Source: a virus
Taxonomy: Duplodnaviria > Caudoviricetes
Length of the DNA stretch: 64,000 nt
Strand: one strand, 5' to 3'
Virus record (IMG/VR): IMGVR_UViG_3300025413_001239
Below, piece after piece: positions 1-44,000 of this stretch (its first letter is position 1; each line of letters opens with the position of its first letter). The translations under genes were made by a program, and so were the position numbers. Under the pieces are notes generated by a model, which worked only from the letters and a program-made list of their open reading frames with translations, did not search any database and was not told the DNA's origin.

Positions 1-34
1 AGTCAAGAAAAAAATAAGAATTTTAAAAAATAAA

Positions 35-65
35 TTTGGCGGTATAAAAAATAGCCGTACATTTG
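35..65 (+). promoter_or_regulatory. Bacteroidota-type primary sigma promoter
   Basis: TTTG (35-38), 19-nt spacer, TACATTTG (58-65); matches the TTTG-N19-21-TAnnTTTG consensus. Confidence 0.8.
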
Positions 66-97
66 CATCATTATTAACAATTTAAAGATTTAAAAAA

Positions 98-922
98 ATG
101 GAACAAGTATTAGAAATTAAGGAGTTTACAAAAGACCTTTTAGGTGACACAGCCACTGTAAGGGCTAATTCAACTAGGGGTGAAGAAGTTATTAAAATTG
201 CACTTGACAAAATTGTTGTTAGGGATAATTTTAACGTTAGGCAAAATTATGGTAACTTGGAAGAATTAGCTTACTCAATGATTGAGAATGGTCAAGTAAT
301 GCCTGGTCATGTTGATGTTCTTGCCGATGGTCGTTTCGTTTTAACTGATGGACACAGAAGGTTTAAAGCCTTAAAACTATTGGCTGAAATGGGTCACGAA
401 CCTTTATTTAAGGCGATTGTGAACCCTAAAAAAATGACAGAAGAGCAAAGGATTCTTCAAGTATTTACTACGCAAGATAACAAGCCTTTAGAACCAAACG
501 AAGTTGCGGAACTAATTAACCGTTTAATTAATTTGGGGTACAAACAAACCGATGTTGCGAAACGTATTGGGCGTACAGGTGCATACGTTTCACAGATGCT
601 TAACTATGTTACTGAAAGTCCTTTGATTAAAGAAGAAGTTAAAGAAGGCAATATTACAGTTGCAGCTGTTTTGGATTTGCAAAAGAAGATACCCAATAAA
701 GAAGAAAGGGTTAAGGCAGTTAAGGATGCTGTTGCAAAGAAAAAAGAAGAAACGAAAGACGATAAGAAACCAACGCCAGTTTCAGCAAATGAAGTAATTG
801 GTAAAAAAGATAAGGGTGCTATTGCTTTTGAGATTGTGTGTTTAATTGAACAGGCTTATAGCGAAGAACTTGAAGGTGCTGATTTGAAAATGATGGTTAG
901 CATTATTAAGGGTTATCTTTAA
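98..922 (+). CDS. parB: ParB/RepB/Spo0J family protein (ParB N-terminal domain plus HTH)
   Basis: LTDGHRRFKAL arginine-patch motif; HTH-like GYKQTDVAKRIGRTGAYVSQML. Confidence 0.8.
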   Translation: MEQVLEIKEFTKDLLGDTATVRANSTRGEEVIKIALDKIVVRDNFNVRQNYGNLEELAYSMIENGQVMPGHVDVLADGRFVLTDGHRRFKALKLLAEMGHEPLFKAIVNPKKMTEEQRILQVFTTQDNKPLEPNEVAELINRLINLGYKQTDVAKRIGRTGAYVSQMLNYVTESPLIKEEVKEGNITVAAVLDLQKKIPNKEERVKAVKDAVAKKKEETKDDKKPTPVSANEVIGKKDKGAIAFEIVCLIEQAYSEELEGADLKMMVSIIKGYL

Positions 923-944
923 TGGTTTAATTGAATAGGTTAAA

Positions 945-975
945 GTGGGATAGTAGAAATACTATCCCATTTTTA
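945..975 (+). terminator. Intrinsic terminator
   Basis: GTGGGATAGT-loop-ACTATCCCAT followed by a T run after parB. Confidence 0.8.
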
Positions 976-991
976 TTTTAAGAACTTAATA

Positions 992-1073
992 AAAATAAAT
1001 TTGCTCATATCAAATATACTAGTATATTTGCATTCTAATTAATTAACAATCTAAAAATTACAGATTATGACAA
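992..1073 (+). repeat. 82-bp promoter/leader cassette, copy 1
   Basis: Identical to 1964-2045 except one base; contains TTTG-N19-TATATTTG and ATTACAGATTATG. Confidence 0.9.
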
Positions 1074-1918
1074 AGGTACACGAAAGTTTTAAGTTAGTTT
1101 CTAAGGCTATTAGCCACAAAGGGGAATCAGGTATTAAGGTAGAAATTCCTGCTATCTACGAAACTACAAATGAAGATGTGATTAAATTCAGTCACGTTAA
1201 CAGGTTAACTAAAATCAATGGAATTATTACTTTGGGTAATAGTCTTATTGAACTAGCCCACAATCTTAGGGATATAGTTGTTGCTAAGATTGGTGATGAT
1301 TTTTACTACATTGATGGACAGCATTTGGCTAAAGCCTTATTCAAATTGGGGTTGCCAATAAGGTTTAAATTGGTTTATTTAAACGATGAAGAAGAAGCCC
1401 TTAAATTCATTACTAAAATGAATAGTAGTGCTAGAAATTGGTCTTTGAAGCAGTACATTGAAAGTTATTCAAAGGTTAATAAAGACTTGGTTTATTTAAA
1501 CGAGTTAAATGCTCAAACAAGTGTTAGTTATAGTACATTAGGTATTGTGCTAACTAATCAATCAATGTCCTATGTTAAGAAATCAATAAAGGATGGTACT
1601 TTCAAAATAACCGAAAAGAAGGCAGCAAAAATAAGAGTTGATGTTGTGATTAACTTTTATCAAATTACGGGTGTAAAGGTATCTCAATATTGCACTCACG
1701 GACTAATTGACTTTATTAAGAACTTACCAAACGGCTTGAATGATTACTTAGCTAATGAAGGTAGATTTTTAGCTGTTGTGGAATGTGGTAAAATCGTGCC
1801 AAAAGTACCACTAGGGCAACGTGAAACCTATGTCGAATTATTTTCAAAGTGTTGGAATAAAAGCAAAGGTGGTAAATTTAAAGCCTTAAAAGAAAGGTTG
1901 GCAGAAATGGAAAATTAA
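1067..1918 (+). CDS. ParB/Srx-like N-terminal domain protein
   Basis: IVVAKIGDDFYYIDGQH motif and MNSSARNWSLKQYIESY, typical of phage ParB-like proteins; the Arg after DGQH is replaced by Leu. Confidence 0.6.
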   Translation: MTKVHESFKLVSKAISHKGESGIKVEIPAIYETTNEDVIKFSHVNRLTKINGIITLGNSLIELAHNLRDIVVAKIGDDFYYIDGQHLAKALFKLGLPIRFKLVYLNDEEEALKFITKMNSSARNWSLKQYIESYSKVNKDLVYLNELNAQTSVSYSTLGIVLTNQSMSYVKKSIKDGTFKITEKKAAKIRVDVVINFYQITGVKVSQYCTHGLIDFIKNLPNGLNDYLANEGRFLAVVECGKIVPKVPLGQRETYVELFSKCWNKSKGGKFKALKERLAEMEN

Positions 1919-1930
1919 TGGTTTAAATAA

Positions 1931-1961
1931 ATGGGAAAGCCTAAAAAACTTTCCCATTTTT
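1931..1961 (+). terminator. Intrinsic terminator
   Basis: ATGGGAAAG-loop-CTTTCCCAT followed by a T run. Confidence 0.75.
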
Positions 1962-1963
1962 AT

Positions 1964-2045
1964 AAAATAAATTTGCTCATATCAAATATACTAGTATATT
2001 TGCATTCTAATTACTTAACAATCTAAAAATTACAGATTATGACAA
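1964..2045 (+). repeat. 82-bp promoter/leader cassette, copy 2
   Basis: Near-identical to 992-1073. Confidence 0.9.
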
Positions 2046-2449
2046 TTTACGAACAAACGAAAAAAGATGCTTTAGAATTTATTCAGAATGGTGGTAAAGC
2101 ACAACAAGCTACTAATGAAAATCAAAGATTGGTTGCTGAGAATATTTTAGATTTTCTAAGGTTTAATGGCTTAAATGTTGTATTAGTGGCTGATGGTTGT
2201 GTTATTGATATTCACGTTCAAGTTTATAACGCATTTCAAGATTCAAAGCATAATGGGGTCGTGAGGGTATTCTACAAGTCTGCTAGTGATGTTATAAAAA
2301 ATAATAAGGTGCAGTATTTACCTTCGTTAATTACTAATAGTATTGTAGGTTATACAAGAGAATGGAAAGACTTTAACGGCAATGATGAGTTATTGGGTTT
2401 AATTAAACAAGAAATATTTGAGGTCTATAAATACAAAATTAAAAAATAA
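2039..2449 (+). CDS. Hypothetical early protein
   Basis: 136-aa ORF directly behind the promoter cassette. Confidence 0.7.
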   Translation: MTIYEQTKKDALEFIQNGGKAQQATNENQRLVAENILDFLRFNGLNVVLVADGCVIDIHVQVYNAFQDSKHNGVVRVFYKSASDVIKNNKVQYLPSLITNSIVGYTREWKDFNGNDELLGLIKQEIFEVYKYKIKK

Positions 2450-2502
2450 ATTTGCTCATATCAAAAATACTCATATCTTTGCATCACAATAAAACAGAAT
2501 AT

Positions 2503-2724
2503 ATGTTAAGTAGTTTAATCAAAAGAAATGCAGGTTCAAATGAACCAAAGTCGTTAAGGGTTGGTAATAGTACTTTTCCCGAAAATCAACCTAGCTTAAA
2601 TGAATCATTAAAGATTGGTAAAACTGTATTACCCAACAACCAACCTAGTTTAAATGAATGGTGTAAAGAATTTAAAGTCTCTAGTCGTGTTCCAAAATAT
2701 TCGCAATTTTCACATCACGGTTAA
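2503..2724 (+). CDS. Hypothetical early protein (73 aa)
   Basis: ATG at 2503 follows TATCTTTG and an ACAGAATATATG leader; the track start at 2452 lies inside the promoter; internal repeat NQPSLNE x2. Confidence 0.6.
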   Translation: MLSSLIKRNAGSNEPKSLRVGNSTFPENQPSLNESLKIGKTVLPNNQPSLNEWCKEFKVSSRVPKYSQFSHHG

Positions 2725-2774
2725 TATAACTGCATAACGGTTGAAGATTGGTGTAATGGTTAAGAAAACTGAAA

Positions 2775-2800
2775 GGGGTTACCGAAAGGTAACTCTTTTT
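2775..2800 (+). terminator. Intrinsic terminator
   Basis: GGGGTTACC-GAAA-GGTAACTC-TTTTT. Confidence 0.8.
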
Positions 2801-2876
2801 AGTTTAATTAAACAGGTAAAAATAAATTTGTTTATATCAAATTAAGTCCTTAACTTTGCAGTAAATAAAACAGATT

Positions 2877-3011
2877 ATGATAGAAACACTTTTAACTTTC
2901 TTTTTGATGGGTATGGTTTATATAAATGGGGTTAAGCCATTACAAGGCTTTAAGGATAAGCCTTTCAGCGAAAAAAGACGCATTGTCTTGTCATTAAGAG
3001 ATATGGATTAA
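2877..3011 (+). CDS. Small hypothetical protein (44 aa, hydrophobic N-terminus), not in ORF track
   Basis: MIETLLTFFLMGMVYINGVKPLQG... preceded by a TAACTTTG promoter and ACAGATTATG. Confidence 0.6.
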   Translation: MIETLLTFFLMGMVYINGVKPLQGFKDKPFSEKRRIVLSLRDMD

Positions 3012-3072
3012 AAATAAATTTGGCTGAATCAAATTAAGTCCTTAACTTTGCAGTAAATAAAACATACAGAAT

Positions 3073-3447
3073 ATGGCTAAGAAACTTGTTAGACTTACAA
3101 CCCATCAAATAATTGATGAAACGGTTGCGTTTTACGAAAAAAATATTCGAGCAAAACAAGACAATTGGTGCGAGTATCTAACTGATGATGGTAGAATGTG
3201 TGCCGTTGGTAGATGCTTAACCCCTAAGAGTTTGCAGATAGCCCAAACAGAATTTGGAGGTAAGGACTTTGGTAGCTTAAACTTGAATAGGATTAAGTTT
3301 AAGGCTCAATATACAGGTAAATGTGACGACTTTTGGTCATCACTACAAAGCCTACACGATAGCGAGAAATATTGGAATGGTAACCATTTAAGTTATATGG
3401 GTGAAATTAAGGTTAAAGCCTTAAAAGAACGATTTGCAAATATTTAA
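3073..3447 (+). CDS. Hypothetical early protein (Cys/His-containing)
   Basis: Own promoter cassette; CEYLTDDGRMCAVGRCL and LQSLHD motifs. Confidence 0.7.
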   Translation: MAKKLVRLTTHQIIDETVAFYEKNIRAKQDNWCEYLTDDGRMCAVGRCLTPKSLQIAQTEFGGKDFGSLNLNRIKFKAQYTGKCDDFWSSLQSLHDSEKYWNGNHLSYMGEIKVKALKERFANI

Positions 3448-3463
3448 TCAAAAATGCTTGTAT

Positions 3464-3553
3464 ATGAATAAAACAATTTGGATTGGTATATCAATTATTG
3501 TTTCAGTTGAATTAATTGGTATTCTTATGGGTTTAATTAAACTAATAAACTAA
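3464..3553 (+). CDS. Small membrane peptide (29 aa), not in ORF track
   Basis: MNKTIWIGISIIVSVELIGILMGLIKLIN; TAATG coupling to the next ORF. Confidence 0.45.
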   Translation: MNKTIWIGISIIVSVELIGILMGLIKLIN

Positions 3554-3690
3554 TGAAAATTTTAATGTGTTTGGCACTAGTAGTGCTGTTAACAAGTTGT
3601 TCATTCAAGAACTTACACCGAGTACATAAGGGAGATAAGATATATCGCCCACCTTGTAATTGTGGTCCACACTTTGGTCCGTTTAATTAA
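3553..3690 (+). CDS. Mini-lipoprotein (45 aa), not in ORF track
   Basis: MKILMCLALVVLLTSC: basic N-terminus, hydrophobic core and LTSC lipobox. Confidence 0.55.
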   Translation: MKILMCLALVVLLTSCSFKNLHRVHKGDKIYRPPCNCGPHFGPFN

Positions 3691-3753
3691 ACAGGTAAAA
3701 ATAAATTTGGTTGATTGAAATTAATTCCTTAATTTTGTTGAAAATTACAGATT

Positions 3754-4062
3754 ATGATTAAAGCAATTAAGATTGATGTTCAGAACAGAACAGTTACTGA
3801 GGTTGAAATTCAAAACAACTTGGAAGCCTATTATAAGGAGATAGGCTGCGATTTAGTTGAGTTTGTTAAGGTCGATGAGGTTAACGACCTTATGGTTGAT
3901 GAAGAGGGTTTATTCACAAAGAATCCATTCTTTATAATGGAAGGCTTATATCAACCAATGAGAGGCAACGGCTTAATAGTTGGGGTTGATTTTGAAGAGG
4001 GTGAAACCATAAGCACAACCCTTACAGTAGATGAAGTAAAAGCAAGAGTACACTTTGTATAG
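3754..4062 (+). CDS. DUF3846-like phage protein
   Basis: LEAYYKEIGCDLVE...LMVDEEGL...MRGNGLIVG pattern. Confidence 0.55.
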   Translation: MIKAIKIDVQNRTVTEVEIQNNLEAYYKEIGCDLVEFVKVDEVNDLMVDEEGLFTKNPFFIMEGLYQPMRGNGLIVGVDFEEGETISTTLTVDEVKARVHFV

Positions 4063-4114
4063 ACACTTTTGTACTTTTTTGATTTTTCGTTATATTTATT
4101 AATAAATAGATATA

Positions 4115-4759
4115 ATGAAAAATCAAAAATTAACAAGTGAAGAACGCAAAGCAAAAAAAATTGAAGCTAATAAAGCTTATCGAGAAGCTAATAAAATTAA
4201 ATTAACCGAAACAAATAAAGCAAAATACGAAGCTAATAAGGTTAAGATAGCTGAAAGAGCTAAAATTTATTATGAAGCTAATAAAGCTAAGATAATTGAA
4301 AAAAAACAATTATATATCCAACTTAATAAAGAAACTATTGCAGCTAAGAAAAAAGCTTATTATGAAGCTAATAAAGAAAAGTTAAATAAATTAACTAGAG
4401 ATTGGGTTAAAAATAAATTAGCTACCGACCCTTTATATAAATTGAAAGCGAATATAAGAACTTTAGTCGGGAACTCTATTCGTAGAAACGGTTATAAAAA
4501 GTTAAGTAAAACCCATTTAATTTTAGGTTGCACATTTGAACAATTCAAAGAACATTTAGAGTCACAATTTGAGCCGTGGATGAATTGGAATAACCGTGGG
4601 TTATATAATGGTACTGAAAATTATGGTTGGGATATTGACCACATTATACCAGTATCTAGCGGCTTAACTGAACAAGAAGTGGTTCAATTAAACCATTATA
4701 CCAACTTAAAACCTCTATGTAGTTATATAAACCGTGACGTTAAAATAAATAAGGTATAA
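4115..4759 (+). CDS. HNH homing endonuclease-like protein
   Basis: WDIDHIIP...LNHYTNLKPL C-terminus; Lys-rich YEANK repeats at the N-terminus. Confidence 0.75.
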   Translation: MKNQKLTSEERKAKKIEANKAYREANKIKLTETNKAKYEANKVKIAERAKIYYEANKAKIIEKKQLYIQLNKETIAAKKKAYYEANKEKLNKLTRDWVKNKLATDPLYKLKANIRTLVGNSIRRNGYKKLSKTHLILGCTFEQFKEHLESQFEPWMNWNNRGLYNGTENYGWDIDHIIPVSSGLTEQEVVQLNHYTNLKPLCSYINRDVKINKV

Positions 4760-4802
4760 CATACACTTTTGTGTACACAAGGACGTTCGGTGCATTGAAT
4801 AC

Positions 4803-4840
4803 AAATAACCCCCAACCGATTTGATTGGGGGTTTATTTAA
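4803..4840. terminator. Bidirectional terminator between convergent genes
   Basis: AAATAACCCCCAA-loop-TTGGGGGTTTATTT. Confidence 0.7.
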
Positions 4841-4845
4841 ACCTA

Positions 4846-4938
4846 TTAAGGTTCATTCATAAAGTCAGAAATGTTTAATGGTTCAATCAATTCCTCGCAT
4901 TGAATGAACAAGTCAAAATCATCATAATCCAAAAGCAT
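4846..4938 (-). CDS. Small acidic peptide (30 aa), not in ORF track
   Basis: MLLDYDDFDLFIQCEELIEPLNISDFMNEP, preceded by ACAGCTATG, a variant of the early leader. Confidence 0.4.
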   Translation of the reverse strand: MLLDYDDFDLFIQCEELIEPLNISDFMNEP

Positions 4939-4994
4939 AGCTGTTTATTTAAACGTAAAAAAATAGGGGTGCGATTGCTCACACCCCAGAGTTA

Positions 4995-5255
4995 TTATTT
5001 GATGGCTGCTTTCAATTCAGCCTTTAATCTCTTAGCATCTTCGCCCTTGAAGGTTGAAGCATTACCTAAGAAATAAATTACAATGCTTTCAGCTGTATCA
5101 TAGCCATAAGCATCGTTTTTGTCTTGTAGGGTGCATAAAGCATCTAAATAAGGCTTTGCACCAAAGTAAACCTTTGCACCCCAAACACGCTTAATTTCAC
5201 GTCCTATAACACATAAAGAACGAAAGTTAACTACTGCATTTTTTGTCTTTGTCAT
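4995..5255 (-). CDS. Conserved phage hypothetical protein (86 aa)
   Basis: Start after an ATTACAGTTTATG leader and TTTG-N19-TATCTTTG (5322-5292); AKPYLDAL...YGYD...IVIYFLGNASTFKGE pattern. Confidence 0.7.
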   Translation of the reverse strand: MTKTKNAVVNFRSLCVIGREIKRVWGAKVYFGAKPYLDALCTLQDKNDAYGYDTAESIVIYFLGNASTFKGEDAKRLKAELKAAIK

Positions 5256-5423
5256 AAACTGTAATTTTATTAAGTGATTAAGAAATTTCAGCAAAGATAA
5301 GTAGTTTATTTAAACCAACAAATTTATTTTATCCCTTTTTATAAACCTATTAACATAACTACAATAAGGGCGTATATTTATACGATTTTTTAAAAAGTTT
5401 TTGTTTATGTTATTTTACACCCT

Positions 5424-5500
5424 TATCTTTGCAATGTTATTATAACAGGACGACATAAAAAATCGGGAGGTGTACTCCACTATGCGCTTTATTTTTATAT
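5424..5500 (+). ncRNA. Putative ~65-75-nt small RNA, copy A (coordinates include the -7 promoter element)
   Basis: TTTG-N20-TATCTTTG promoter, no ORF, core ATCGGGAGGTGTACTCC (5462-5478) shared with copy B, T-rich end. Confidence 0.45.
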
Positions 5501-5552
5501 AACCATACATACGTTGGAATTTACAATATTATTCTAATACCGCCAAATAAAG

Positions 5553-5585
5553 TTATCCCCAAAATGATTTTTAAAATGTGGATAA
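5553..5585. promoter_or_regulatory. Inverted DnaA-box pair upstream of the DUF932 promoter
   Basis: TTATCCCCA (5553) and TGTGGATAA (5577), 24 bp start-to-start. Confidence 0.6.
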
Positions 5586-5667
5586 CTTTATTGCAGTTTA
5601 TTTAAACCATAACCTATCTTTGCTGAAATTTATTAACCGCTTCGAGAGAAGCACAATATTACAGATT

Positions 5668-6534
5668 ATGAAATATGTTAATTTAAAAGGTCAAAAATTA
5701 CAAAATGATGACGTGTTCCCAACAGTAGAAATTAAGTCATTTAGCGAGGCAATTAACCTCAAAACTAGGAAAGGTTATGATAATTTAGTTATCAGTAACG
5801 GCGAAGTAGTTAACGTTTGTAGTGATAGTTATGCACTACTTAAAAATGAAGACTTTTTTTTAAAGGTAGAAGAAAAGTTAATTGTTGACGCTGATGTAGA
5901 ATACACTAAAAGGAGTATAAACCGAAATAACCGTTCTTTTGCGGTTGATTACATTTTAAATGACGATAGGTATGATATTGTAATTAATAGCGGCAAAAAG
6001 GACGTTATTAAACCAATGCTTCGCTTTGTTAACTCTTATGATGGTAGTGCCAAAACAAAGGGTTCTTTTGGGTATTTTAGACAAGTTTGCACTAATGGTT
6101 TACACATTGCTGAAACAATGTTAAACTTTGATGTTAAACATAGGGGTGCAATAGCTGAAATAGTTCTCCCTAAGATGGATAACCTAATTTCAAATTTTAT
6201 GGAAAACGAATACTACACGTTAAAAAGTAAAGCTGAAACCCTTACAAATAGCAAAATTAGTGATGTAGCTAAATTTGTACAGGATATTTGTAAAAAAACC
6301 AATATCTTTAAATTTGAAAAAAGCGAAAAGAACCCCGAACCTTCAAAGTACGCTGAACAGGTAATAAACACAATTTTTAGTGAGGCAAATTACCTAAACG
6401 TTGTACCTAATTTGTGGCTGGGTTATAACTCATTTAATTCAATCCTTACCGATGGAACGTTTAGCAAAACATTCGAGAAAGAAACCGAATTTGATAACCT
6501 TATATTCAATAGGGTGCTTGAAATGGCAGGTTAA
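5668..6534 (+). CDS. DUF932 (DUF945) family protein
   Basis: FVNSYDGS...GYFRQVCTNG signature; ATG at 5668 follows the promoter and ACAGATTATG. Confidence 0.75.
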   Translation: MKYVNLKGQKLQNDDVFPTVEIKSFSEAINLKTRKGYDNLVISNGEVVNVCSDSYALLKNEDFFLKVEEKLIVDADVEYTKRSINRNNRSFAVDYILNDDRYDIVINSGKKDVIKPMLRFVNSYDGSAKTKGSFGYFRQVCTNGLHIAETMLNFDVKHRGAIAEIVLPKMDNLISNFMENEYYTLKSKAETLTNSKISDVAKFVQDICKKTNIFKFEKSEKNPEPSKYAEQVINTIFSEANYLNVVPNLWLGYNSFNSILTDGTFSKTFEKETEFDNLIFNRVLEMAG

Positions 6535-6555
6535 GTACTTAACCGCTTAAAAGTA

Positions 6556-6583
6556 AGGGTAACAGAAATGTTACCCTTTTTTT
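6556..6583 (+). terminator. Intrinsic terminator
   Basis: AGGGTAAC-AGAAAT-GTTACCCT followed by a T run. Confidence 0.8.
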
Positions 6584-6839
6584 ATGCCCTTAACTATCCA
6601 TGTACACTAATGTGTACCATACGTGTGAAAATAGCCGTTTTTAGCCCATTTTGAGCCGTTTATTACCAAAATAAGGTAATCATATTAACAGCTTTATTTT
6701 AAGCCAAATTTGAGCCTTAAAATCAATTCTTTGATTACAATAAACCTATTTTTGCACAATAAAGCTATTAACTTTATTATAAGCCTATTAACTTTATTAA
6801 CCACTTAACAAAACATAAAAAAATCTTATGTTAGTAAAA

Positions 6840-6989
6840 TGTGGATAATTTTTAGATGTTAATAACTATGTGGATAAAATGTGGATAAGTACTTAGTAAC
6901 ATTTGTGGATAACTTATGTGGATAAAATGTGAATAACTTTTTTACTTATCCACATTTGTTAATAACGTATGCGGATAAAATGTGGATAA
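6840..6989. repeat. Array of DnaA boxes (oriC-like)
   Basis: Perfect TTATCCACA/TGTGGATAA at 6840, 6869, 6880, 6904, 6917, 6946 and 6981; near matches at 6928 (TGTGAATAA), 6970 (TGCGGATAA), 6857 and 6957 (TGTTAATAA). Confidence 0.85.
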
Positions 6990-7044
6990 CTTTTTTTGGT
7001 GGTATGAAAAAAAAGTTGTACCTTGCATCCGCATAGGCACATAT

Positions 7045-7127
7045 ATAAAAAAATAAAAGGCAGGTCGGAGTACACCTCCCGATGTCCTTTAGAACTATCG
7101 TCTTGTTATATTAACACTGCAAAGATA
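7045..7127 (-). ncRNA. Putative small RNA, copy B (inverted relative to copy A)
   Basis: Minus-strand TTTG-N20-TATCTTTG (7151-7120), the same GTTAwTATAACARGACGA 5' part, core at 7083-7067 and a U-rich end. Confidence 0.45.
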
Positions 7128-7156
7128 TAGCAGCAAAATGACATGGACAAAAAAAG

Positions 7157-7189
7157 TTATCCACATAAGTAAAATAAAAATGTGGATAA
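7157..7189. promoter_or_regulatory. Inverted DnaA-box pair between divergent promoters
   Basis: TTATCCACA (7157) and TGTGGATAA (7181), 24 bp start-to-start as at 5553/5577. Confidence 0.65.
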
Positions 7190-7276
7190 CTTTATCTTGT
7201 TTAATTAAACCAATATCAAAAATTTACCCTATCTTTGCAGTCTTATTAACCGCCGAAAGGCACTAAATTACAGATT

Positions 7277-7864
7277 ATGAATACAGTTGAAACGGTACAA
7301 ACTACTGAAATTGCAGTAAGCGAAGTAGCTGCAAAAGTGATTAACTTAGCTAAATTAGCTATCCAAAAATCGCCAACAGGTGTTAGTTTTGTTAGTATTA
7401 GGAATTATACTAATCAATACGGCGAAATTTCAAACCAAACAATTAATTTAGGCGAAAGCTATGAGAAAGCTAAATTAAGGGATATTGAAACGCTTGAAGG
7501 CTTGGACATTACCAATGCTGAATATGGCTTTAAAAGTAGTGTTTTAATGCTTGAAAAAGCAAGGGTTGAATTAATTGAGGCTTTTATTAAGCCAAACGAA
7601 ACCCGCTCAAAAGGGCAAACAGAAGCCTATACAAACATCTGTAAAGGTATAAGAGTGCATAACCAAACGGGATTGCTTTATTTATACGGCTATCGTATAA
7701 ATAAGAGTGTTTTGCAAAGTGGTACATACCCAACTAAAAATAGTAAGGAATTAACCATAGCGAAGGATGAATTAAGAAAGCTATTAAAGACAAATAAATT
7801 TGTAAACTTCTCTTTACAGGTCGGCAATGAATTAAGAATGGCTGGGGATACTTTAGAATTGTAG
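7277..7864 (+). CDS. Hypothetical phage protein
   Basis: 195-aa ORF with a TATCTTTG promoter (7230) and ACAGATTATG leader. Confidence 0.8.
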   Translation: MNTVETVQTTEIAVSEVAAKVINLAKLAIQKSPTGVSFVSIRNYTNQYGEISNQTINLGESYEKAKLRDIETLEGLDITNAEYGFKSSVLMLEKARVELIEAFIKPNETRSKGQTEAYTNICKGIRVHNQTGLLYLYGYRINKSVLQSGTYPTKNSKELTIAKDELRKLLKTNKFVNFSLQVGNELRMAGDTLEL

Positions 7865-7931
7865 TAAAAAAATAAGGTGGGTTAAATAGTGCTATGTCTA
7901 TTGATAACAATAGAGATTTTTAGACTTAAAT

Positions 7932-7965
7932 GGGCTGCAATACAATTTTGCAGCCCACTTTTTTA
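7932..7965 (+). terminator. Terminator-like hairpin, duplicated at 8237-8266
   Basis: GGGCTGCA-loop-TGCAGCCC-ACTTTTTTAA in both places. Confidence 0.65.
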
Positions 7966-7983
7966 ATAACTAAATTTTATAGT

Positions 7984-8229
7984 ATGAGAAATTTTAAAGT
8001 AGTTGATGGGGATGTTGATTTTGAAGTAGTCGAAAGGGTAATCAAAGGTCGTTTTACCAAAAAAAGGTTTAAGACGATACATAGAGCCGCAAGGGAAAGA
8101 TTAGGCGGCAAAGTGCCTTATTGTGGCTGCGTTTATGATTGTTGCGGCTGTTTAAGCAGCAAAGGCGTATCTTTCGACTTTCGTAATGGCGCACTTGTTA
8201 TTCAAGCATCAAGATATTACAACTACTAA
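7984..8229 (+). CDS. Small Cys-rich protein (81 aa)
   Basis: YCGCVYDCCGC motif; the track start at 7930 lies inside the upstream hairpin. Confidence 0.6.
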   Translation: MRNFKVVDGDVDFEVVERVIKGRFTKKRFKTIHRAARERLGGKVPYCGCVYDCCGCLSSKGVSFDFRNGALVIQASRYYNY

Positions 8230-8283
8230 ACTTAAAGGGCTGCATCCTTGCAGCCCACTTTTTTAACCACTTAAATAAAAAAA

Positions 8284-8424
8284 ATGAAAAAAATACTTCT
8301 TGCCTTATTGCTTATTGGATTTCTATCTAGTTGCAGTTATAGTGAGTACCAATGTGCTGCCCACTACAAAGTAACCGACTATTATAGTGGTCGGATTACT
8401 CCGAGATGGAAACTAGCCCACTAA
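8284..8424 (+). CDS. Mini-lipoprotein (46 aa), not in ORF track
   Basis: MKKILLALLLIGFLSSC: classical signal peptide II with LSSC lipobox. Confidence 0.6.
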   Translation: MKKILLALLLIGFLSSCSYSEYQCAAHYKVTDYYSGRITPRWKLAH

Positions 8425-8559
8425 AAATACCCTAAAAAACAGCTAAAAAGCCCAAAATTGGGCTTTTTTTATGCCCGTAAGGTAATCGTATCAAAAACAA
8501 CCAAACAGGCTAAAACAGGCTTAAAATGGCTATTTTAAGCTATATGACTATACGGCAGT

Positions 8560-8610
8560 CCCCCCTCCCGTCAAGGTGACAGTACCCCCTACCCGTAACC
8601 CCCCTCCCGT
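8560..8610. repeat. Three C-tract repeats (CCCCCCTCCCGT x2, CCCCCTACCCGT x1)
   Basis: 8560-8571, 8585-8596 and 8599-8610, read directly from the sequence. Confidence 0.85.
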
Positions 8611-8740
8611 ATGACAGATTGGCATAGCCATATGGGGGTGGCGATACTGTGTTCAAAATTTTTTTTTCATTTTCGGGGTCAAATAATAACTAATCTGAAA
8701 TTTTTGGTTTTTAATAAAATGAAAGTCATTTTAAAAAATT

Positions 8741-9103
8741 TTATTTTTTAAAATTTTTGAGGTCCATATGTTCATATATTGATTTTATTAAATCAATAAA
8801 ATCTAAATATGGTAAGTCATTTTTTAATAAGTTAATTTTTGTTCTAACTAAAACAACGTTATCTTTTGTATACCCAGCATTTGAATTAATTCTATCAATT
8901 GAGAATGCCTTATCATTGATTCTATAATCGGACAAATCATCTTCAGTTAAAGTATCCAATAATTCTTTACCAGTATATTTACATTTACAGTTTTGTTGTT
9001 CATATAATTCTTTAATAAAATCTGTTGTTAAGTCAAAGGCTATACCTTTTTTTATTGCTCGTGCACGTGCTGCGGCAACTCTAATTTTAATTAAGTTATT
9101 CAT
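8741..9103 (-). CDS. HNH-like endonuclease domain protein
   Basis: CKYTG...FSIDRINSNAGYTKDNVVLV..INLLK. Confidence 0.6.
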   Translation of the reverse strand: MNNLIKIRVAAARARAIKKGIAFDLTTDFIKELYEQQNCKCKYTGKELLDTLTEDDLSDYRINDKAFSIDRINSNAGYTKDNVVLVRTKINLLKNDLPYLDFIDLIKSIYEHMDLKNFKK

Positions 9104-25719: not shown

Positions 25720-27531
25720 CTAATTGGTGTCGGGTACGATATTTTTTATATTAATAATTTTAATCTCACCAGTTAGTTTATTTCTAACTGTTATTTCTGT
25801 ATCACCACAAATACACTTACCAACACCTGTTGGACCTAAAAAGATGAATGTACCAACTGGTTTATTTTTAGGCTTAATACCAATACGATTTCTCTTGATG
25901 GCTTTAACAACTTTAGCAACAGCTTCGTCTTGACCTATGACTTTACCAGTTAACTCCTTATCAAGGGTAAGTAATTTTTTACTTTCTTGGGTTGAGATTT
26001 TAGTTAATGGGATACCAGTCATCATCGATACAACTTCGGATATTTGTTCAACACCAACAATTGTTTCTCTTTTTTCAAGCTTAGTAGTCCAAGCTTTCAT
26101 AGCGGCTTCTAGTTGCTCATTGATTTTGTTTTGTTCATCCCTAATTTTTGCAGCGTCTTCGTATTTTTGTTTGCTAACAACTTCTTTTTTCCTGATGATA
26201 AGTTTGTTTTTCTTATCTTCAAGGTCCTTAATATTCTGTGGTTTTTCAAGACTAATATTAGTTGCAGCACCAGCTTCATCCATAACATCTATGGCCTTAT
26301 CTGGCATTGACCTTTCCATGATGTATCTATCAGAAAGCTTCACACATTCTTCAATAGCTTCGTCAGTATAAACAACGTTATGGTGTTTTTCATACTTTTC
26401 TTTAATATTTTGAAGAATAACCTTAGTTTCTTCGAGGGTTGGTTCCTCAACAAGAACTTGTTGAAATCTTCTTGTTAAAGCACCATCTTTTTCGATGTGC
26501 TCACGATATTCATCAAGGGTTGTTGCGCCGATGATTTGTATTTCACCACGAGCCAATGCTGGTTTAAAGATGTTACTAGCATCTAAGGCACCAGATGCGT
26601 TACCAGCACCAACGATTGTATGTAATTCATCGATGAATAAAATGATATCTGTGTTTGCTTTACATTCTTCAAGAACGGCTTTCATTCTTTCTTCAAATTG
26701 ACCACGATACTTGGTGCCAGCAACAAGAGAAGCTAATTCAAGTGAATAAATCTTTTTATTAGCTATAATTCTAGGTGCGTTACCTTCTTTAATAAGAAGT
26801 GCAAGCCCTTCAACGATTGAGGATTTACCAACACCTGGTTCACCGATGATAACTGGGTTGTTTTTCTTTCTACGAGAAAGAATTTGTGAAATCCTCTTGA
26901 TTTCGTTAGTACGCCCAACTACTGGGTCGATTTCATTTTTTTCTACTGCTTTGCTGATATCTCTACAGAAATTATCCAACACTGGTGTTTTACCACCATC
27001 AGATTTTCTTTTAGATTTTCTAAAACGTTCTGAATCGTTTGTAAAATCATCTTGTACATCTTCATCGTCCATCGGACCGTTTTTAAAGTTTTCTTTACTT
27101 TGCATTATCATTTTTTTAAATGTTACATAATTGACACCGAATTCATTTAATATATCAGAAATCGGTGTTTTAAAGGCTAAAATAGACAATAATAAGTGTC
27201 TTGTGTCGATTACTTTATCATTAAGTTTCTCACATTCACTATCTATTATTTTAAATACATGTTTAGCATCTTCAGAGAAGATTATATTATTACTAAATTT
27301 GACTAGTACTCTTGGTGTTAAATCGCTTCTTAGGTAATCATAAACAGCGATTTGTAATGCACTAATATCAATTTTATTCTTTGTTAGAATTTCTACACAC
27401 TCATTATCGTTATCGTTTAATAGTGATATAACTAAGTGTTCTGGTTTAACTTTATTATCATCAAAGCTTTTAGCTTCTTCATTAGCTTTATTAATAATAA
27501 ATTTAACCTTAGGATATATTTCTCTATTCAT
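25720..27531 (-). CDS. clpC: ClpC N-terminal part (Clp-N, AAA1, UVR-like coiled coil, start of AAA2) plus a 31-aa N-intein
   Basis: [49 protein letters not shown] and [11 protein letters not shown]|CICGDTEI. Confidence 0.92.
25723..25815 (-). mobile_element. Split intein, N-fragment (31 aa)
   Basis: Cys1 directly after the Walker A Lys; block [11 protein letters not shown]; stop codon after 31 residues. Confidence 0.8.
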
Positions 27532-28300: not shown

Positions 28301-30724
28301 ATGAAAAATGGGTTAGATGAACAATATATCGAATTATTAGAGGATATATTAAAAAATGGTATTGAAAAAGAAACCAGAAATGGTAAGGTATTATCTGTTT
28401 TTGGACGTGAAATTAGATATAAATTTAAAGATGGTAAATTTCCACTTATAACTACCAAAAAAATGTACTTTAAGGGTATTGTAACTGAATTACTATGGTT
28501 CTTACAAGGACGTACTGATTTACGTTATTTACTTGAGAACGATTGTAATATTTGGACGGGAGACGCTTATAAGAGATATATTTTTAATTCAGAATGGTAT
28601 CCAATTGCTGGTTCACCTAGTGGATTTATTGGCACTAAATCTGATAGTGATGAAATAATGACACAAGGAATATTCATTGAACGTATTAAAACAGACGATG
28701 AGTTTTCAAGGACATGGGGTGATTTAGGACCTGTGTATGGGTCTGGTTGGCGTAATTGGAAGTTCACAGATAAGTTTACAAATGGAGAACAGATTACTTA
28801 TGTAAATGGAAAGGTAGACCAGATTGCAAACTTAATCGAAGACCTTAAAACAAATCCAGATTCTCGCAGACTTATGGTAAATGCGTGGAATTGTTCAGAG
28901 CTCGACCAAATGGTTTTACCACCATGCTTTACTGAAGATATGATGGTTGCATGTGTGGATGGTTATAGGAAAATATCTGAAATAACCACTAACGATTTGG
29001 TGTTAACTGAAGATTGTTCTTATCAAAAAGTTTATGAACTACATGAAACAATGTATAATGGCGATTTAATTAAATTTAAAGTATTTGGCAATACTAAATA
29101 TATAACATGCACCCCTAATCATCCGTTTTTAATTAAAGATAAAGGTTATATTAGTGCTAATGAAATAATTGAAGATGATTACTTAGCGATACCTATAAAT
29201 AGAAATTCAATTATACCGTCATTTGATACGTTGTTAAAATGCAACCAATATGGTGAAAAATTAGTAACCACAAAATTAGATAATTTTGATTATTGGTTTT
29301 TAATGGGGTATTTTATGGGAGATGGTTGGTTAATAAGTTCAAAAGAAGAGGTTTGTTTTGTAATAAATGACAACCAAACGGATTTAATACTACCTAGATT
29401 AAAAAATATAATAGGTTTAGCTAAATTAAATAATTCTGGTATTAATTGCACAAAATATGTCGGTAAGAAAAAACAAGTTTTTGAAATTTTATCTATGTTT
29501 GGAAAATATGCTGATGGCAAATTTATACCAAAATTTGTTTATGATGCGCCTAAGGAGTACATTGAACAATTTATTGAAGGTTATTTTATGGCCGATGGGT
29601 GTAAAACAAAAGACGGTATAAGTTATAGTACAGTATCTGAAAATATTGCGTATGGGGTACAATTACTATATGCAAAGTTAGGTGTTAAAGTTAGTGTATA
29701 TTTTCAAAATAGACCTAAAAAAAAGGTTATTGAGGGGCGTGAGGTAAACCAAAAAAATACATTTTCAATAAATGTATACAAACAAAAAAATAAAACAAAA
29801 AAATATATTTTAGACACCGACTATTTGTGGGTTAAAATTAAAGAAATTAATAAAATTAATTTTAATGGTTATGTTTATAATATATCGGTTGGTAACAATC
29901 ACACGTATAACGTGTACAATCTAATCAACCATAATTGTCATTATGGATTTCAATGTTATACTAGAGAATTGGGTTTGGAAGAAAGAAGAGAGATTGCTAG
30001 AAATAAATTAAATTCTATAGAATGGGGTGATGTTATTAAATTAGCTCATTACAATGAGACTTATGATAAGTATAATATACCAACCAGAGCATTATCATTG
30101 AAATGGAATCAACGTTCAGTTGATACACCATTAGGTTTGCCATTTAATATAGCATCTTATGGTCTATTGTTAGAGATACTTGCAAAAGAAGTTAACATGG
30201 TACCAGATGAATTGATTGGTGGTCTTGGTGATTGTCATATTTACTTAAACCAAATTGAAGGTGTTAAAGAACAGATTGGAAGAGAATATACAGTTGAAGA
30301 GGGTTTACCTAAAACGATTAAATTAATAGGTTACGGTAAAGAATTGGAATTTTCATTGACAGATAAAAGAGAAATAGAATATTATGGTAAAACCGAAGGT
30401 AGCAATGAAACTTTGTGGAGAACTGAAAAATTTAAAGATAATGAAGTATTCTACCAGACAGAATTTGGATGGGGTGTTTTTCTAAATACTGACACTTTTG
30501 AAACTGTCACATACGATGGAACTGAATGGGGTGGTCAAAAAATAAACATCTCTAAGAGAACTCGTGAACCGTTTCCGTTACCAAGACTTAAGCACATGAA
30601 AACTGATGCTTTCTATAAGTCATTATCTGAAGACCAATCGTTGTATGGACATTTAGATAATAAAGATTTTCAAATTGAGAATTATCAATCACATCCGTCA
30701 ATTAAATTTCCGTTAAGTAACTAA
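28301..30724 (+). CDS. thyA: Thymidylate synthase with intein
   Basis: FPLITTKK, ELLWFL, DLGPVYG, PDSRR, LPP|..|CH, QRSVD..LGLPFN and GDCHIY. Confidence 0.95.
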   Translation: MKNGLDEQYIELLEDILKNGIEKETRNGKVLSVFGREIRYKFKDGKFPLITTKKMYFKGIVTELLWFLQGRTDLRYLLENDCNIWTGDAYKRYIFNSEWYPIAGSPSGFIGTKSDSDEIMTQGIFIERIKTDDEFSRTWGDLGPVYGSGWRNWKFTDKFTNGEQITYVNGKVDQIANLIEDLKTNPDSRRLMVNAWNCSELDQMVLPPCFTEDMMVACVDGYRKISEITTNDLVLTEDCSYQKVYELHETMYNGDLIKFKVFGNTKYITCTPNHPFLIKDKGYISANEIIEDDYLAIPINRNSIIPSFDTLLKCNQYGEKLVTTKLDNFDYWFLMGYFMGDGWLISSKEEVCFVINDNQTDLILPRLKNIIGLAKLNNSGINCTKYVGKKKQVFEILSMFGKYADGKFIPKFVYDAPKEYIEQFIEGYFMADGCKTKDGISYSTVSENIAYGVQLLYAKLGVKVSVYFQNRPKKKVIEGREVNQKNTFSINVYKQKNKTKKYILDTDYLWVKIKEINKINFNGYVYNISVGNNHTYNVYNLINHNCHYGFQCYTRELGLEERREIARNKLNSIEWGDVIKLAHYNETYDKYNIPTRALSLKWNQRSVDTPLGLPFNIASYGLLLEILAKEVNMVPDELIGGLGDCHIYLNQIEGVKEQIGREYTVEEGLPKTIKLIGYGKELEFSLTDKREIEYYGKTEGSNETLWRTEKFKDNEVFYQTEFGWGVFLNTDTFETVTYDGTEWGGQKINISKRTREPFPLPRLKHMKTDAFYKSLSEDQSLYGHLDNKDFQIENYQSHPSIKFPLSN
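28925..29935 (+). mobile_element. Intein (337 aa) with LAGLIDADG endonuclease in thyA
   Basis: CFTEDM start, TPNHPF, LMGYFMGDG, FIEGYFMADG, VYNISV and NHN|C. Confidence 0.9.
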
Positions 30725-41024: not shown

Positions 41025-44000
41025 ATGGCTAAACAAAATTTAACAATATTCCAAAAATTGGGTCAAATACTAGGTCCAGAAGGAGTAAAACAAAAACAAC
41101 AATTACCAGCTCAAAATCAACCGCAAAGATACAACATTGGTAAGGATGTCTTATTAAAGACTGATGACAAAAAAGCTTATGAATTAGCTAAACTACAAGC
41201 ACAACAAAATAAGTACTTGGGTCAAGTTTGGAAAAAAGTTGAACACGGACTTTTTCAACAAGCTGTTAACTATGAAACCACACGTATTGGTTCTTATTCT
41301 GATTTTGAATCGATGGAATTTTATCCAGAAATAGCTGCTGCTTTAGACATTATGATGGAAGAATCGACTACACTTAATGGTAATGGTCGTATGGTTAATG
41401 TTTATTCTGATAGTGTTAGGGTTAAGGGTATTATTGAAGACCTTTTATTTAATAGGCTTGATATGCATACATCATTACCAATGTGGACCAGAAATACTCC
41501 AATACGTGAAGATAGTATTATACCATTATTAGATGGTACTGAAATTACTATCAAGGAACTATCTAATAGAGTTAAAAATGGTGAAGAAATATGGTCTTAT
41601 GCAATTCAAGATGTTACCAAGGCAATTGTACCAAGTAAAATAATTTGGTGTGACCTTACTAGAAAGGATAGTGAATTATATCGAGTAACACTTGATGATG
41701 GTTCATATATTGATACAACACCAGACCATGAATATATGCTTAGAGATGGTTCATATAAAAGAGCTGATGAATTAACTGAAGGACAGTCTTTAATGCCTTT
41801 TTATACTAGAAAAAGTGAAAAGAAAAAAGATTGTATTGTAGGTTATGAAAAAATTTATAATCCAAGTACAACTAAATATAAGTTTACTCATTCTTTAGTT
41901 GCACATGAGTTATCAAATTGGAAAAATAGTAAATTTATAGAACAAACCAAAAAAGGTATGACTATAGAAATTACCGATGATTGTTTTGATTATATTTCAA
42001 CTATAATAAAAAATAATGAAAATTATGTTGGTGTAAATAAATTAACTAAATTACTTAGAGCTGATTCTAATTTTATTACGTTGTTTAAAGAAAATTATTC
42101 TTTAAAAAAAGATATTATTAAATCTATTAACCCAACAACATTAACTAAAGTATTATTTAGAAAAACAAATCAGAATTATTTTGATTTTGTTTTATCAATA
42201 AAACCAAGTTTAGTATTAGATAAATCATATATCAAAGCTAAAGCAATTTATTTAGGTAAAACTAAATCAAACGTATTATTAAATCATAAAGTTGTTTCAA
42301 TTATTAAACTTTCAGAGACTTCTGATGTATATTGTTTAGAAGCGGTTGGACCTAATGGCGAACATGATAGACATAATTTTCCAGTGTTAGGTAAAGATGT
42401 AAATGGTTCAGTATCAAGAAGTTCTGGTGTATTTTTAGCCAACTGTAAATACGGTGATAATTTCGTTTATTTAAATATTTCAGATACTAATGGTGTTATA
42501 GGTGCAAAGCAAATGCCTAACTATGAAATGGAACGTAGAGATGGTGGTCTTTTTGATATGATTTCACAAAGAACTGATGAAGATTATAAAACAGATAAAA
42601 CTAAGTATTATTGGAGAGGTCGTGATGTTGAATTTAACTCATGGCAAATAGCACACTTTAGACTTCTTGGTGATGATAGAAGATTACCTTACGGTACATC
42701 GGTGCTAGAAAAAGCTAGAAGAATTTGGAAACAATTATTATTATCTGAAGATGCTATGCTTGTTTATCGTGTTACACGTGCACCTGAGCGTAGAATATAT
42801 AAAATATATGTTGGTAATATTGATGATAAGGACGTTGAAGCATACGTAAATGAAATTGCTAACAGGTTTAAAAGAACCCCAATGGTTGACCCACAAACTG
42901 GGCAAGTTGATTTAAGATATAATCAACTTTCAAATGACCAAGATTACTTTATTCCAGTTAGAAGTGAAGATGCTCCAAGTCCTATCGATACATTACCTGG
43001 TGCTTGTTTATCTTTGGATACGAGGATTCCACTATTAGATGGTAGAATACTTGAACTACAAGAAATTATTTCTGAATGGGATAATGGTAATAAGGACATG
43101 TGGGTTTATTCTGTTGACCCTCAAACTGGTGCATCAACAGTTGGTCCAATCACTTGGGCTGGAGTTACACGTAAAAATACTCAAGTTTTGAAGATAACCC
43201 TTGATAACGGTAAATCAATAACTACAACACCAGACCATAAGTTTGTACATAGAACCAATGGGTTTGTGGAGGCACAAAATCTTGTTATTGGTGATAGTCT
43301 GATGCCGTTTTATACTGATATCGCTAAAATAAAATCAAATTCTAATAATGGTTATCAGAGAATTTGGGATACGGCTACTCAAAAATGGGTTTTTACACAT
43401 AGATTAGTCAAAGAAATTTTATCCAATACTGGGTTAATAAAAGATTTTGAATTTGATACAAAATATATTGGTACTGATAAAAAAATAATACATCATAAGG
43501 ACCATAATAGATTTAATAACGCACCAAACAATTTGGTAATGATGAATGTTGGTGACCATATGAAATATCATCAATCAGTTATTAAAGAAACTATTTGGGC
43601 TAACCCAGAACTTAATAAGGCTAAAATTACACTTGGCGTTAATAAATTCATTTCAAATTTGACTGATGAGGAAAGAGCAATAAGGGCTAAAAAATCAAGA
43701 AATAATTCCGTTACCACAAGAGATAAGGCTAATAAAACGTTTAATGGCAATATTAATAAAGTAGAAATTATTTCAAAAAGAGGTAAGGCTATTGCTGAAG
43801 CAAAGTCAATCCCAGAGTTTAAAGAAAAATTATCTAAGATAGCAGCTAATAATTGGCTAGTTGATGGTTATAAAGAAAGAGTATTCTCAAAAAAACAAAC
43901 ACTTACTTTTTCCGAAAATCTTTATATGATGTTTTTTGAGATGTTTAAACAGCATGGTAAAGCTGATGCTACACTTGCTGAATTAAATCAATCGATTGAG

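Follow-up and report, generated by a model that had tools for sequence, protein, structure and literature searches.

DnaA boxes and an orphan ParB gene in the early region of a T4-like jumbo phage suggest host-sensing control more than an origin and partition system of plasmid type

Does a cluster of DnaA boxes lying near a ParB gene mark a replication origin with its own partition system when the carrier is a T4-like jumbo phage? The question is raised by the first part of a 64,000-nt stretch of viral DNA (the window; bases 37870-101869 of the 148,708-bp IMG/VR virus record IMGVR_UViG_3300025413_001239, or G000), for which an initial annotation had proposed a chromosome-like origin and partition module. 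The record is 44% complete according to CheckV and encodes a T4-type large terminase (TerL), portal and major head protein. The phage is one of Bacteroidota-type hosts. In the region in question, here called the island, promoters of early genes sit directly against perfect DnaA boxes, and a ParB for which no partner was found has scattered palindromes of its own; the island thus has more the look of a control region that senses the host than of an origin with a partition system of plasmid style. Positions below are those of the window unless a genome or contig is named.

The DnaA boxes are far more frequent than chance allows. The window contains 11 copies of the perfect box TTATCCACA where chance would give 0.84, and none of 100 shuffles reached 11. 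Of these boxes, 10 fall in 5577-7189, which agrees with the ten or more first reported. The whole record holds 16, with the six outside the island close to control level. The box-bearing part is laid out as follows, and includes a non-coding cassette of about 700 bp held in a gene-free gap of 742 bp (6535-7276).

5398-5496, plus strand: small-RNA unit 1, with TTTG at -33 (5400-5403), TATCTTTG at -7 (5424-5431) and a predicted transcript of about 60-65 nt
5553-5585, no strand assigned: convergent DnaA-box pair, TTATCCCCA, a 15-nt spacer and TGTGGATAA, the right box flush with the DUF932 promoter
5586-5622, plus strand: DUF932 promoter, with TATCTTTG at -7 (5615-5622) and a palindrome (5596-5607) between the -33 region and the -7 box
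6546-6839, no strand assigned: left part of the cassette, with a terminator hairpin, a GTACAC..GTGTAC palindrome, phased T-tract/AGCC repeats and an AT-rich tract
6840-6989, minus strand: DnaA-box array of seven perfect, two one-mismatch and two two-mismatch boxes
6990-7027, plus strand: promoter P_as, with TTTG (6995-6998) separated by 5 nt from the last array box, then 20 nt and TACCTTGC (7019-7026)
7055-7153, minus strand: small-RNA unit 2, with its -7 box at 7127-7120, TTTG at -33 near 7150 and a DnaA box (7157-7165) flush upstream
7157-7189, no strand assigned: convergent pair of perfect DnaA boxes with a 15-nt spacer, between the divergent promoters of small RNA 2 (left) and gene 7277 (right)
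7190-7237, plus strand: gene 7277 promoter, with a palindrome (7199-7210) at -33 and TATCTTTG at -7 (7230-7237)

What distinguishes these boxes is their register with promoters. The promoters concerned fit TTTG, 19-21 nt and TAnnTTTG, the Bacteroidota host-type consensus. A strict pattern was defined as a box oriented as TGTGGATAA, 4-7 nt, (T)TTG, 17-22 nt and TAnnTT(T/G)(G/C). It is fitted by 13 of the 48 perfect boxes of the phage and its relatives, and by none in the opposite orientation. Within the window the fitting boxes are those at 5577 (DUF932 promoter), 6981 (P_as) and 7165 on the bottom strand (small-RNA 2 promoter). The box at 7181, upstream of the gene 7277 promoter, falls outside the pattern because a palindrome occupies the -33 position. 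Each box of the 7157/7181 pair is flush with the promoter that it faces, so that the pair is a putative operator between divergent promoters. A 15-nt spacer recurs in nine of 13 convergent pairs across lineages, the counterpart of the 5553/5577 pair is perfect in the related lineage L189, and the record has one more such pair before the window (G000 29148/29173). The array contains three direct box pairs at 11-bp spacing and a single inverted box (6946), and is built of 22-nt double-box units and 53-nt repeats. When IMG/VR was scanned for tandem double boxes, 43 contigs were found, none of them related; such tandems recur in viral contigs.

P_as is a weak promoter directed antisense through small RNA 2, towards gene 7277. 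The 26-nt junction between its box and the promoter is kept in G001, L169 and L170, distant relatives that retain just that box. Across the lineages, the box 9-mers stay perfect though spacers and neighbouring proteins diverge, the latter to 67-78% identity. A host origin of the junction was considered and rejected: the 26-mer had no match in 185,579 bacterial genomes, and a 20-mer had 14, scattered in unrelated phyla. The same 26 nt also occur in two unrelated viral contigs from sample 3300020045 that share no island genes (L173:1435-1460 and L174:4378-4403), in L173 immediately before a gene that is terminase-like and has a Walker A motif. These two junctions suggest that a wider class of DnaA-box phage promoters may exist. 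The underlying DNA grammar is simple (a box, 4-7 nt and a -33 element) and is the same in these unrelated freshwater phage contigs.

Promoter-proximal boxes are a familiar means by which DnaA acts as a transcription factor, as at E. coli dnaA, nrdAB and mioC, at B. subtilis dnaA and sda, and in the stimulation of lambda pR. At such promoters the initiator also serves to sense how far replication has advanced in its cycle, or replication state. The island shares with them consensus 9-mers directly upstream of or between promoters, and its boxes abut core promoters in a conserved register. It differs in its phage-borne promoters of Bacteroidota type, the fixed gap between box and -33 element, the strict orientation, the convergent pairs with 15-nt spacers, the run of up to 10 perfect boxes and the coupled antisense small RNA. 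No description of this promoter-coupled grammar (fixed gap, orientation, pairs, arrays and antisense small RNA) was found in the literature.

The second family of sites accompanies the ParB gene, for which the relevant features are:

98-922, plus strand: orphan ParB/KorB-family protein of 274 aa, with the CTP-pocket motif DGHRRFKA and a helix-turn-helix (HTH) domain
1067-1918, plus strand: second gene of ParB/sulfiredoxin (Srx) fold, 283 aa, with DGQHLAKA and no arginine patch
1373-7210, no strand assigned: 12-bp palindromes GTTTA(A/T)TTAAAC, starting at 1373, 1490, 2397, 2802, 3531, 3681, 4831, 4943, 5304, 5596 and 7199

The first protein is a ParB with a GHRR patch and an HTH domain, as the initial annotation had stated. 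It exceeds the Pfam cut-offs for both HTH_ParB (1.5e-6) and KorB (PF08535; 5.3e-6, 26.7 bits against a cut-off of 22.3), and stays under that of TIGR00180 (49.7 bits against 58.45). It matches phrog_1033 at 6e-33 and, among PDB chains, Spo0J (1vz0, 4e-7), KorB (8qa8, 5e-6) and Noc; the residues aligned with its DGHRRFKA are GERRYRA in Spo0J and GARRYRG in KorB. The ParA-interaction motif (L/F/I)G(K/R)G(L/F/I) is absent from its first 40 residues. That motif has been defined in work which also describes numerous orphan ParBs carried by phages and other mobile elements (PMC12704722). The protein thus has the CTP box and HTH of a type I ParABS system, and neither a ParA nor a ParA-binding motif was found.

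The second gene was likewise assigned correctly. It matches phrog_12305 at 3e-15 and, by profile against the PDB, sulfiredoxin (1e-5), SbnI and ParB (4umk, 4e-4). Its AlphaFold2 (AF2) model has a pLDDT of 92, and all of its Foldseek matches are ParB, Noc, KorB or Srx chains. The gene had no tblastn match in L189, L195 or L200 and is not conserved in related islands; among the lineages compared, this one alone has it.

The palindromes were also real and enriched, though exact copies number 11 and not the seven first counted. All 11 lie within 1373-7199, and the record holds 14 copies of GTTTAWTTAAAC against 0.3 expected. Allowing up to one mismatch gives 32 in the record against 8.9 expected; 24 of the 32 lie in one 18-kb stretch, outside which the sites are at chance level. 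Six of the 11 stand 4-38 nt from a -7 box, some overlapping promoter cores, and the others are 100-580 nt away or intragenic, including two inside the coding sequence of the second ParB-fold gene. The palindromes co-occur with ParB orthologues (69-80% identity) in L189, L195 and L200, which carry 11, eight and 11 of them, and are absent where ParB is absent or at most 66% identical. No enriched palindromes were found near the distant ParB of G003 or near ParB homologues of 60-66% identity. We propose that the GTTTAWTTAAAC palindromes serve the phage ParB-type protein as operators or as loading sites.

A precedent exists in KorB of plasmid RK2, a CTP clamp of the ParB family that acts as a global repressor from dispersed OB palindromes (PMC11790492). 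The phage protein shares the fold, with a ParB N-terminal domain carrying the CTP motif, and the KorB-type DNA-binding domain with its HTH. The sites are likewise one palindrome in many copies at variable promoter distance, some in the promoter core and some far away or intragenic. Unlike KorB, the protein has no IncC/ParA partner that could be found, and no KorA-like clamp lock was identified, the small ORFs of the island not having been screened for KorA or TrbA likeness. The candidate site is moreover a 12-bp AT-rich palindrome, and the carrier is a jumbo phage of lytic type. A second comparison, made by description, is with the ParB-like protein HerB/YfjB, encoded in the leading region of conjugative plasmids (preprint, PMC13370423). 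By analogy, the phage protein would resemble HerB as an orphan with a ParB-like CTP domain and HTH on a mobile element, HerB being expressed immediately on entry. HerB binds host chromosomal sites, whereas here a dense family of candidate sites lies on the phage's own DNA.

These two site families allow a tentative reading, plausible though short of probable: host DnaA may gate the early promoters and the convergent promoter/small-RNA pair, with the orphan ParB adding a second operator layer. The island would then be an accessory early-gene control region of a T4-like jumbo phage, using host-type promoters and two kinds of site. Host DnaA (the clade encodes none) would oligomerise on the boxes and switch the adjoining promoters, and the convergent pair of P_as and small RNA would turn DnaA occupancy into an either-or output for downstream early genes. 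Early expression would in this way be coupled to free host DnaA, whether as a measure of replication state or as DnaA released on destruction of the chromosome. The ParB/KorB-type protein would load at GTTTAWTTAAAC and silence or organise the island, as KorB does on RK2, with no ParA partitioning. We infer the identity of the binders and the sign and purpose of the regulation from observed sites, statistics, geometry and conservation, together with the finding of no ParA, DnaA or integrase. If the reading holds, the island would be a clear example of how a phage of lytic type can sense the replication state of its host via the initiator protein, and orphan phage ParBs would gain a concrete candidate site family and a KorB-like role.

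Several points weigh against this reading. Seven to ten perfect boxes exceed the needs of known DnaA-regulated promoters, and resemble origins or datA. The array stands beside an AT-rich tract and is oriented with respect to it as R1 of E. coli is to the unwinding element there. The link between ParB and the palindromes is a co-occurrence within one sub-clade only, which shared descent could explain. Because the record is about 44% complete, a ParA or an initiator could lie in the unseen part. Origins of T4 type are themselves a promoter plus an AT-rich element (PMC3016281), so that regulation and priming are not mutually exclusive.

This leads to the origin that was first proposed, and to the question of how the island behaves across relatives. 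These were reached via TerL, via an alignment of DUF932, and via protein look-ups with gene 7277 and ParB together with the encoding contigs. TerL gave five long relatives (G001-G005), two of them complete 362-kb genomes with terminal repeats. Replication genes are common to these five and the island-bearing phage, and the clade itself encodes a DnaB-type helicase. Synteny with G001-G005 begins downstream of about 10.5 kb, the first 10 kb of the window being a variable early region. Positions 1-9000 had no megablast match among GenBank phages, and searches of IMG/VR for the locus with single proteins (gene 7277, DUF932 or ParB) gave no match. The island is nevertheless co-conserved in at least five related metagenomic lineages:

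L192-194: gene 7277 at 97% identity; 10 perfect boxes and six palindromes (both in L192); layout like that of the window
L189/L190: gene 7277 at 91% and ParB at 69%; 20 perfect boxes; 11 palindromes; the cassette both before and after gene 7277
L198/199: gene 7277 at 67%; nine perfect boxes; three to four palindromes; two small RNAs
L195: gene 7277 at 72% and ParB at 73%; three perfect and two near boxes; eight palindromes; the cassette behind gene 7277
L200: ParB at 80%; three perfect boxes (one alone and one pair); 11 palindromes; a 276-kb contig

A further contig, L197 (gene 7277 at 63%), is without ParB, DUF932, palindromes and small RNAs and keeps one box pair, which forms a terminator stem abutting the next promoter. 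Arrays thus range from one to 10 boxes, and the cassette is duplicated or moved between lineages. The differing counts in several lineages indicate that the features are co-conserved in a sub-clade while box number is very plastic. The box array and island are absent from G001-G005, including the two complete genomes, and lacking in most of the clade. The co-conservation expected of a functional module therefore held among near relatives and failed among distant ones, so that the initial annotation is not refuted on this ground within the near clade. A cassette that is repeated before successive genes (L189), relocated (L195) and reduced (L200) behaves as a portable regulatory module would, and not as a unique origin would.

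If the cassette were nonetheless an origin, host DnaA would open the AT-rich tract or stabilise an R-loop of the short transcripts, and the phage DnaB-type helicase would be loaded there; ParB, the palindromes and canonical parS sites would position or condense the replicating DNA, possibly in a carrier state. This appears doubtful, though much of the layout speaks for it: a 742-bp gap free of genes, a box density like that of oriC and box pairs phased at 11 bp. The array is flanked by T-tract/AGCC repeats of bent-DNA type (about 6630-6730, phased at 10-11 bp) and an AT-rich tract (6740-6839), and the order of these left-part elements is kept in five of six aligned cassette copies, representing five lineages. 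The full order in the six-copy alignment is terminator, GTACAC..GTGTAC palindrome, phased repeats, AT tract, box array and P_as, followed by the opposite-strand small RNA, the box pair, a palindrome and the gene promoter. In L189 arrays lie on both sides of a gene, as in a bipartite oriC, and ParB is about 7 kb away in all island-bearing lineages. The T4-type origin architecture noted above counts in its favour too, as do extrachromosomal mycobacteriophages that combine parABS with RNA-based origins (PMC7157519).

Other observations speak against an origin. The easiest-melting 100-bp stretch of 5.3-7.3 kb starts at 6765 and reaches only the 97.7th percentile of the record; the region as a whole lies at the 96-98th percentile and has no outstanding unwinding element. 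No DnaA-trio or trinucleotide-repeat tract is visible beside the array. The island is missing from relatives that have the same replication genes, and among close lineages the cassette may be present twice, lie elsewhere or retain a single box; a box cluster of oriC type is present, and a single locus shared by relatives with the same replisome is not. One-orientation boxes set flush against promoters are not something an origin requires.

The partners expected of such a module were likewise not found. The initial annotation had seen no ParA in the window and had asked about the rest of the genome: no ParA (PF13614) was detected in the window, in the remainder of G000 (44% complete) or in G001-G005, whereas all 14 control genomes gave a match. 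DnaA (PF00308) had no match in G000-G005, nor had tyrosine integrase (PF00589) in G000, G001, G003 and G004, with positive controls in both cases, and no Rep-type match was found. A Pfam search for T4 gp59 gave no match anywhere and is uninformative, because the controls were negative too.

Bacterial chromosomes place oriC near parB and parS, and the P1 plasmid prophage combines DnaA boxes at oriR with RepA and parABS. The island resembles both in that a few kb contain a ParB gene, palindromes whose arms read GTTT...AAAC and dense boxes next to an AT-rich stretch; canonical parS, too, occurs in the clade. It departs from them in that no DnaA, RepA, ParA, DnaA-trio or outstanding unwinding element was found, and its cassette is multi-copy, mobile and dispensable within the clade. 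What stands of the proposed origin and partition module is the co-conservation of its elements and canonical parS beside boxes; the missing ParA, DnaA, integrase and ParA motif, the mobile cassette and the promoter geometry speak against it. A DnaA-box cluster with a phage ParB should therefore not be annotated as an origin or partition locus before ParA, promoter geometry and conservation have been checked.

The small RNAs bear on the same issue. Both small-RNA promoters of the initial annotation were recovered, as units at 5424-5496 (plus strand) and 7127-7055 (minus strand) that are inverted relative to each other, with DUF932 and the array between them. The record has a third copy before the window. 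The predicted transcript of unit 1 has a 5' hairpin, the invariant core GGGAGGTGTACTCC and a U-run. Altogether 18 distinct copies were found in six lineages, at three to six per genome, sharing a consensus promoter, a GACGA stretch, the invariant core GGGARGTRTACTCC and a U-run. G001, L169 and L170 have three to six units (five or six in G001) and one perfect box each. The 5' hairpin folds in all 17 copies tested, with at least seven different stem sequences. It was shown sequence by sequence (mean z -1.3), the 3' part being weakly structured, and RNAalifold on a MAFFT alignment recovered just a 3-bp invariant stem. The window had no Rfam 15 match at gathering score and no tRNA or tmRNA gene by ARAGORN. 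P_as would transcribe the antisense strand of the small RNAs.

All three units of G000 have DnaA boxes 25-65 nt downstream, towards which they point, and this too favours an origin primed by transcription. In ColE1, a DnaA box stands just beyond the run of the transcript. The elements of an R-loop origin that can be recognised here are a promoter, a predicted transcript of about 65 nt and a T/A-rich run, and a short promoter-driven non-coding transcript entering AT-rich DNA is common to T4 oriF/oriG (PMC3016281) and ColE1. Unlike these, however, the phage transcripts end in U-runs, as terminated transcripts do, and are present in three to six copies per genome; their conserved 5' hairpin and invariant core are what a trans-acting small RNA would have.

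Could the boxes instead simply absorb DnaA? E. coli datA acts by titration, and amplified phage DNA might draw host DnaA, and host ParB as well, off the host origin, so as to block initiation and segregation or free resources. This explanation seems improbable. It would account for the fact that nearly all boxes are the perfect, highest-affinity 9-mer, unlike the graded affinities typical of oriC, and for box numbers that vary and grow by tandem duplication (one, three to five, six to nine or 10, and 20 across L189), which suggests selection on dosage. Boxes are found even within terminator stems (G000 29148/29173; L197 10589/10604), and G002 has canonical parS and no phage ParB homologue. A sink would, on the other hand, have no need of fixed promoter-flush geometry or strict orientation; the boxes are confined to about 2-3 kb and not spread genome-wide, with the six of 16 found elsewhere near control level, and most relatives do without them. 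As an observation in its own right, intrinsic-terminator-like hairpins whose arms are two perfect DnaA boxes stand at gene ends at L197:10589-10612 and G000:C1:29148-29181, and in L197 the second box arm also adjoins the next promoter.

Another idea comes from the injection-stop region of phage T5, for which it has been proposed that membrane-bound DnaA holds the entering DNA and so lets early genes lead. T5-like phages have eight DnaA boxes, which form pairs inside inverted repeats within an extensive early region that is not translated (bioRxiv 10.1101/866236). Here, too, a lytic phage without dnaA carries paired consensus boxes, in inverted arrangement, within early, partly non-coding DNA rich in repeats and palindromes. 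An anchor or injection pause of this kind is nevertheless highly improbable for the island. The T5 model is itself only a proposal, and the geometry and genome position differ: pairs are spaced by 15 nt here against 3 bp in T5, whose boxes are not described as promoter-flush. Nothing places the island near a genome end, and headful packaging of the T4-like kind means that the entering end is not fixed.

One result points back to host chromosomes. The perfect canonical chromosomal parS 16-mer TGTTNCACGTGNAACA occurs in the clade against 0.0013 expected in the 515 kb examined, at G000:C1:26853-26868 (11,016 bases before the window start), L189:9737, L200:14407, G002:89503 and 89541, and L174:3258. 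In L189 and L200 it lies inside the DnaA-box cassette, which also counts in favour of an origin. G002 has two sites and no phage ParB homologue, so that host ParB is the likely binder there. The island might accordingly be seen as mimicking the origin-proximal region of the host, recruiting host DnaA and ParB/SMC through its arrays, canonical parS and a phage ParB with derived palindromes. This is unlikely. Were it true, the outcome could be a DnaA-dependent auxiliary origin, placement or maintenance of phage DNA (e.g. in a carrier state), or takeover of host replication and segregation control. With canonical parS found next to DnaA boxes, it may be asked whether large phages draw on the origin machinery of their hosts.

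The genes nearest the cassette add some context to the control region that we tentatively favour:

5668-6534, plus strand: DUF932 protein, 288 aa (PF06067, 9e-14; phrog_21518, 5e-87)
7277-7864, plus strand: gene 7277, a conserved phage protein of 195 aa with 172 homologues and an AF2 pLDDT of 86

The DUF932 protein is 50% identical to proteins of the Flavobacterium psychrophilum phage 6H type, near which there are no boxes, and the literature gives no function for it. In plasmid leading regions, DUF932 and ParB-like genes neighbour each other. DUF932 was considered as the partner of the boxes and rejected: 21 other IMG/VR DUF932 loci and phage 6H are without a box cluster. The related DUF932 locus of G001 has one perfect box and eight one-mismatch boxes. 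The gene most constantly flanked by the cassette is gene 7277, which is also present without boxes in G003 and G004. Its model had no fold match in the PDB and no usable match in the Atlas.

Some features of the wider sequence were also recorded. In several lineages a short palindrome family, CACTTTTGTGTAC or GTACAC-N-GTGTAC, follows closely on terminators where intergenic cassettes begin (window 4763-4780 and 6601-6618; G000 26700-26760; L147; L189). Four tandem repeats of 45 nt, in frame and each coding for about 15 residues, lie at 4169-4400 within the gene at 4115-4759; a paralogue of this gene is found shortly before the window starts (G000, about window -924 to -211, minus strand). Further along, an 807-aa ORF (28301-30724) matches thymidylate synthase at both ends and has an unrelated middle of about 350 residues, for which two PHROGs gave matches, one of anaerobic ribonucleotide reductase and one of a head protein; it looks like an intein or inserted domain in thyA. 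Similarly, the 1445-aa portal ORF (41025-45362) has an HNH endonuclease match at residues 773-859, which suggests that it holds an intein or an in-frame homing element.

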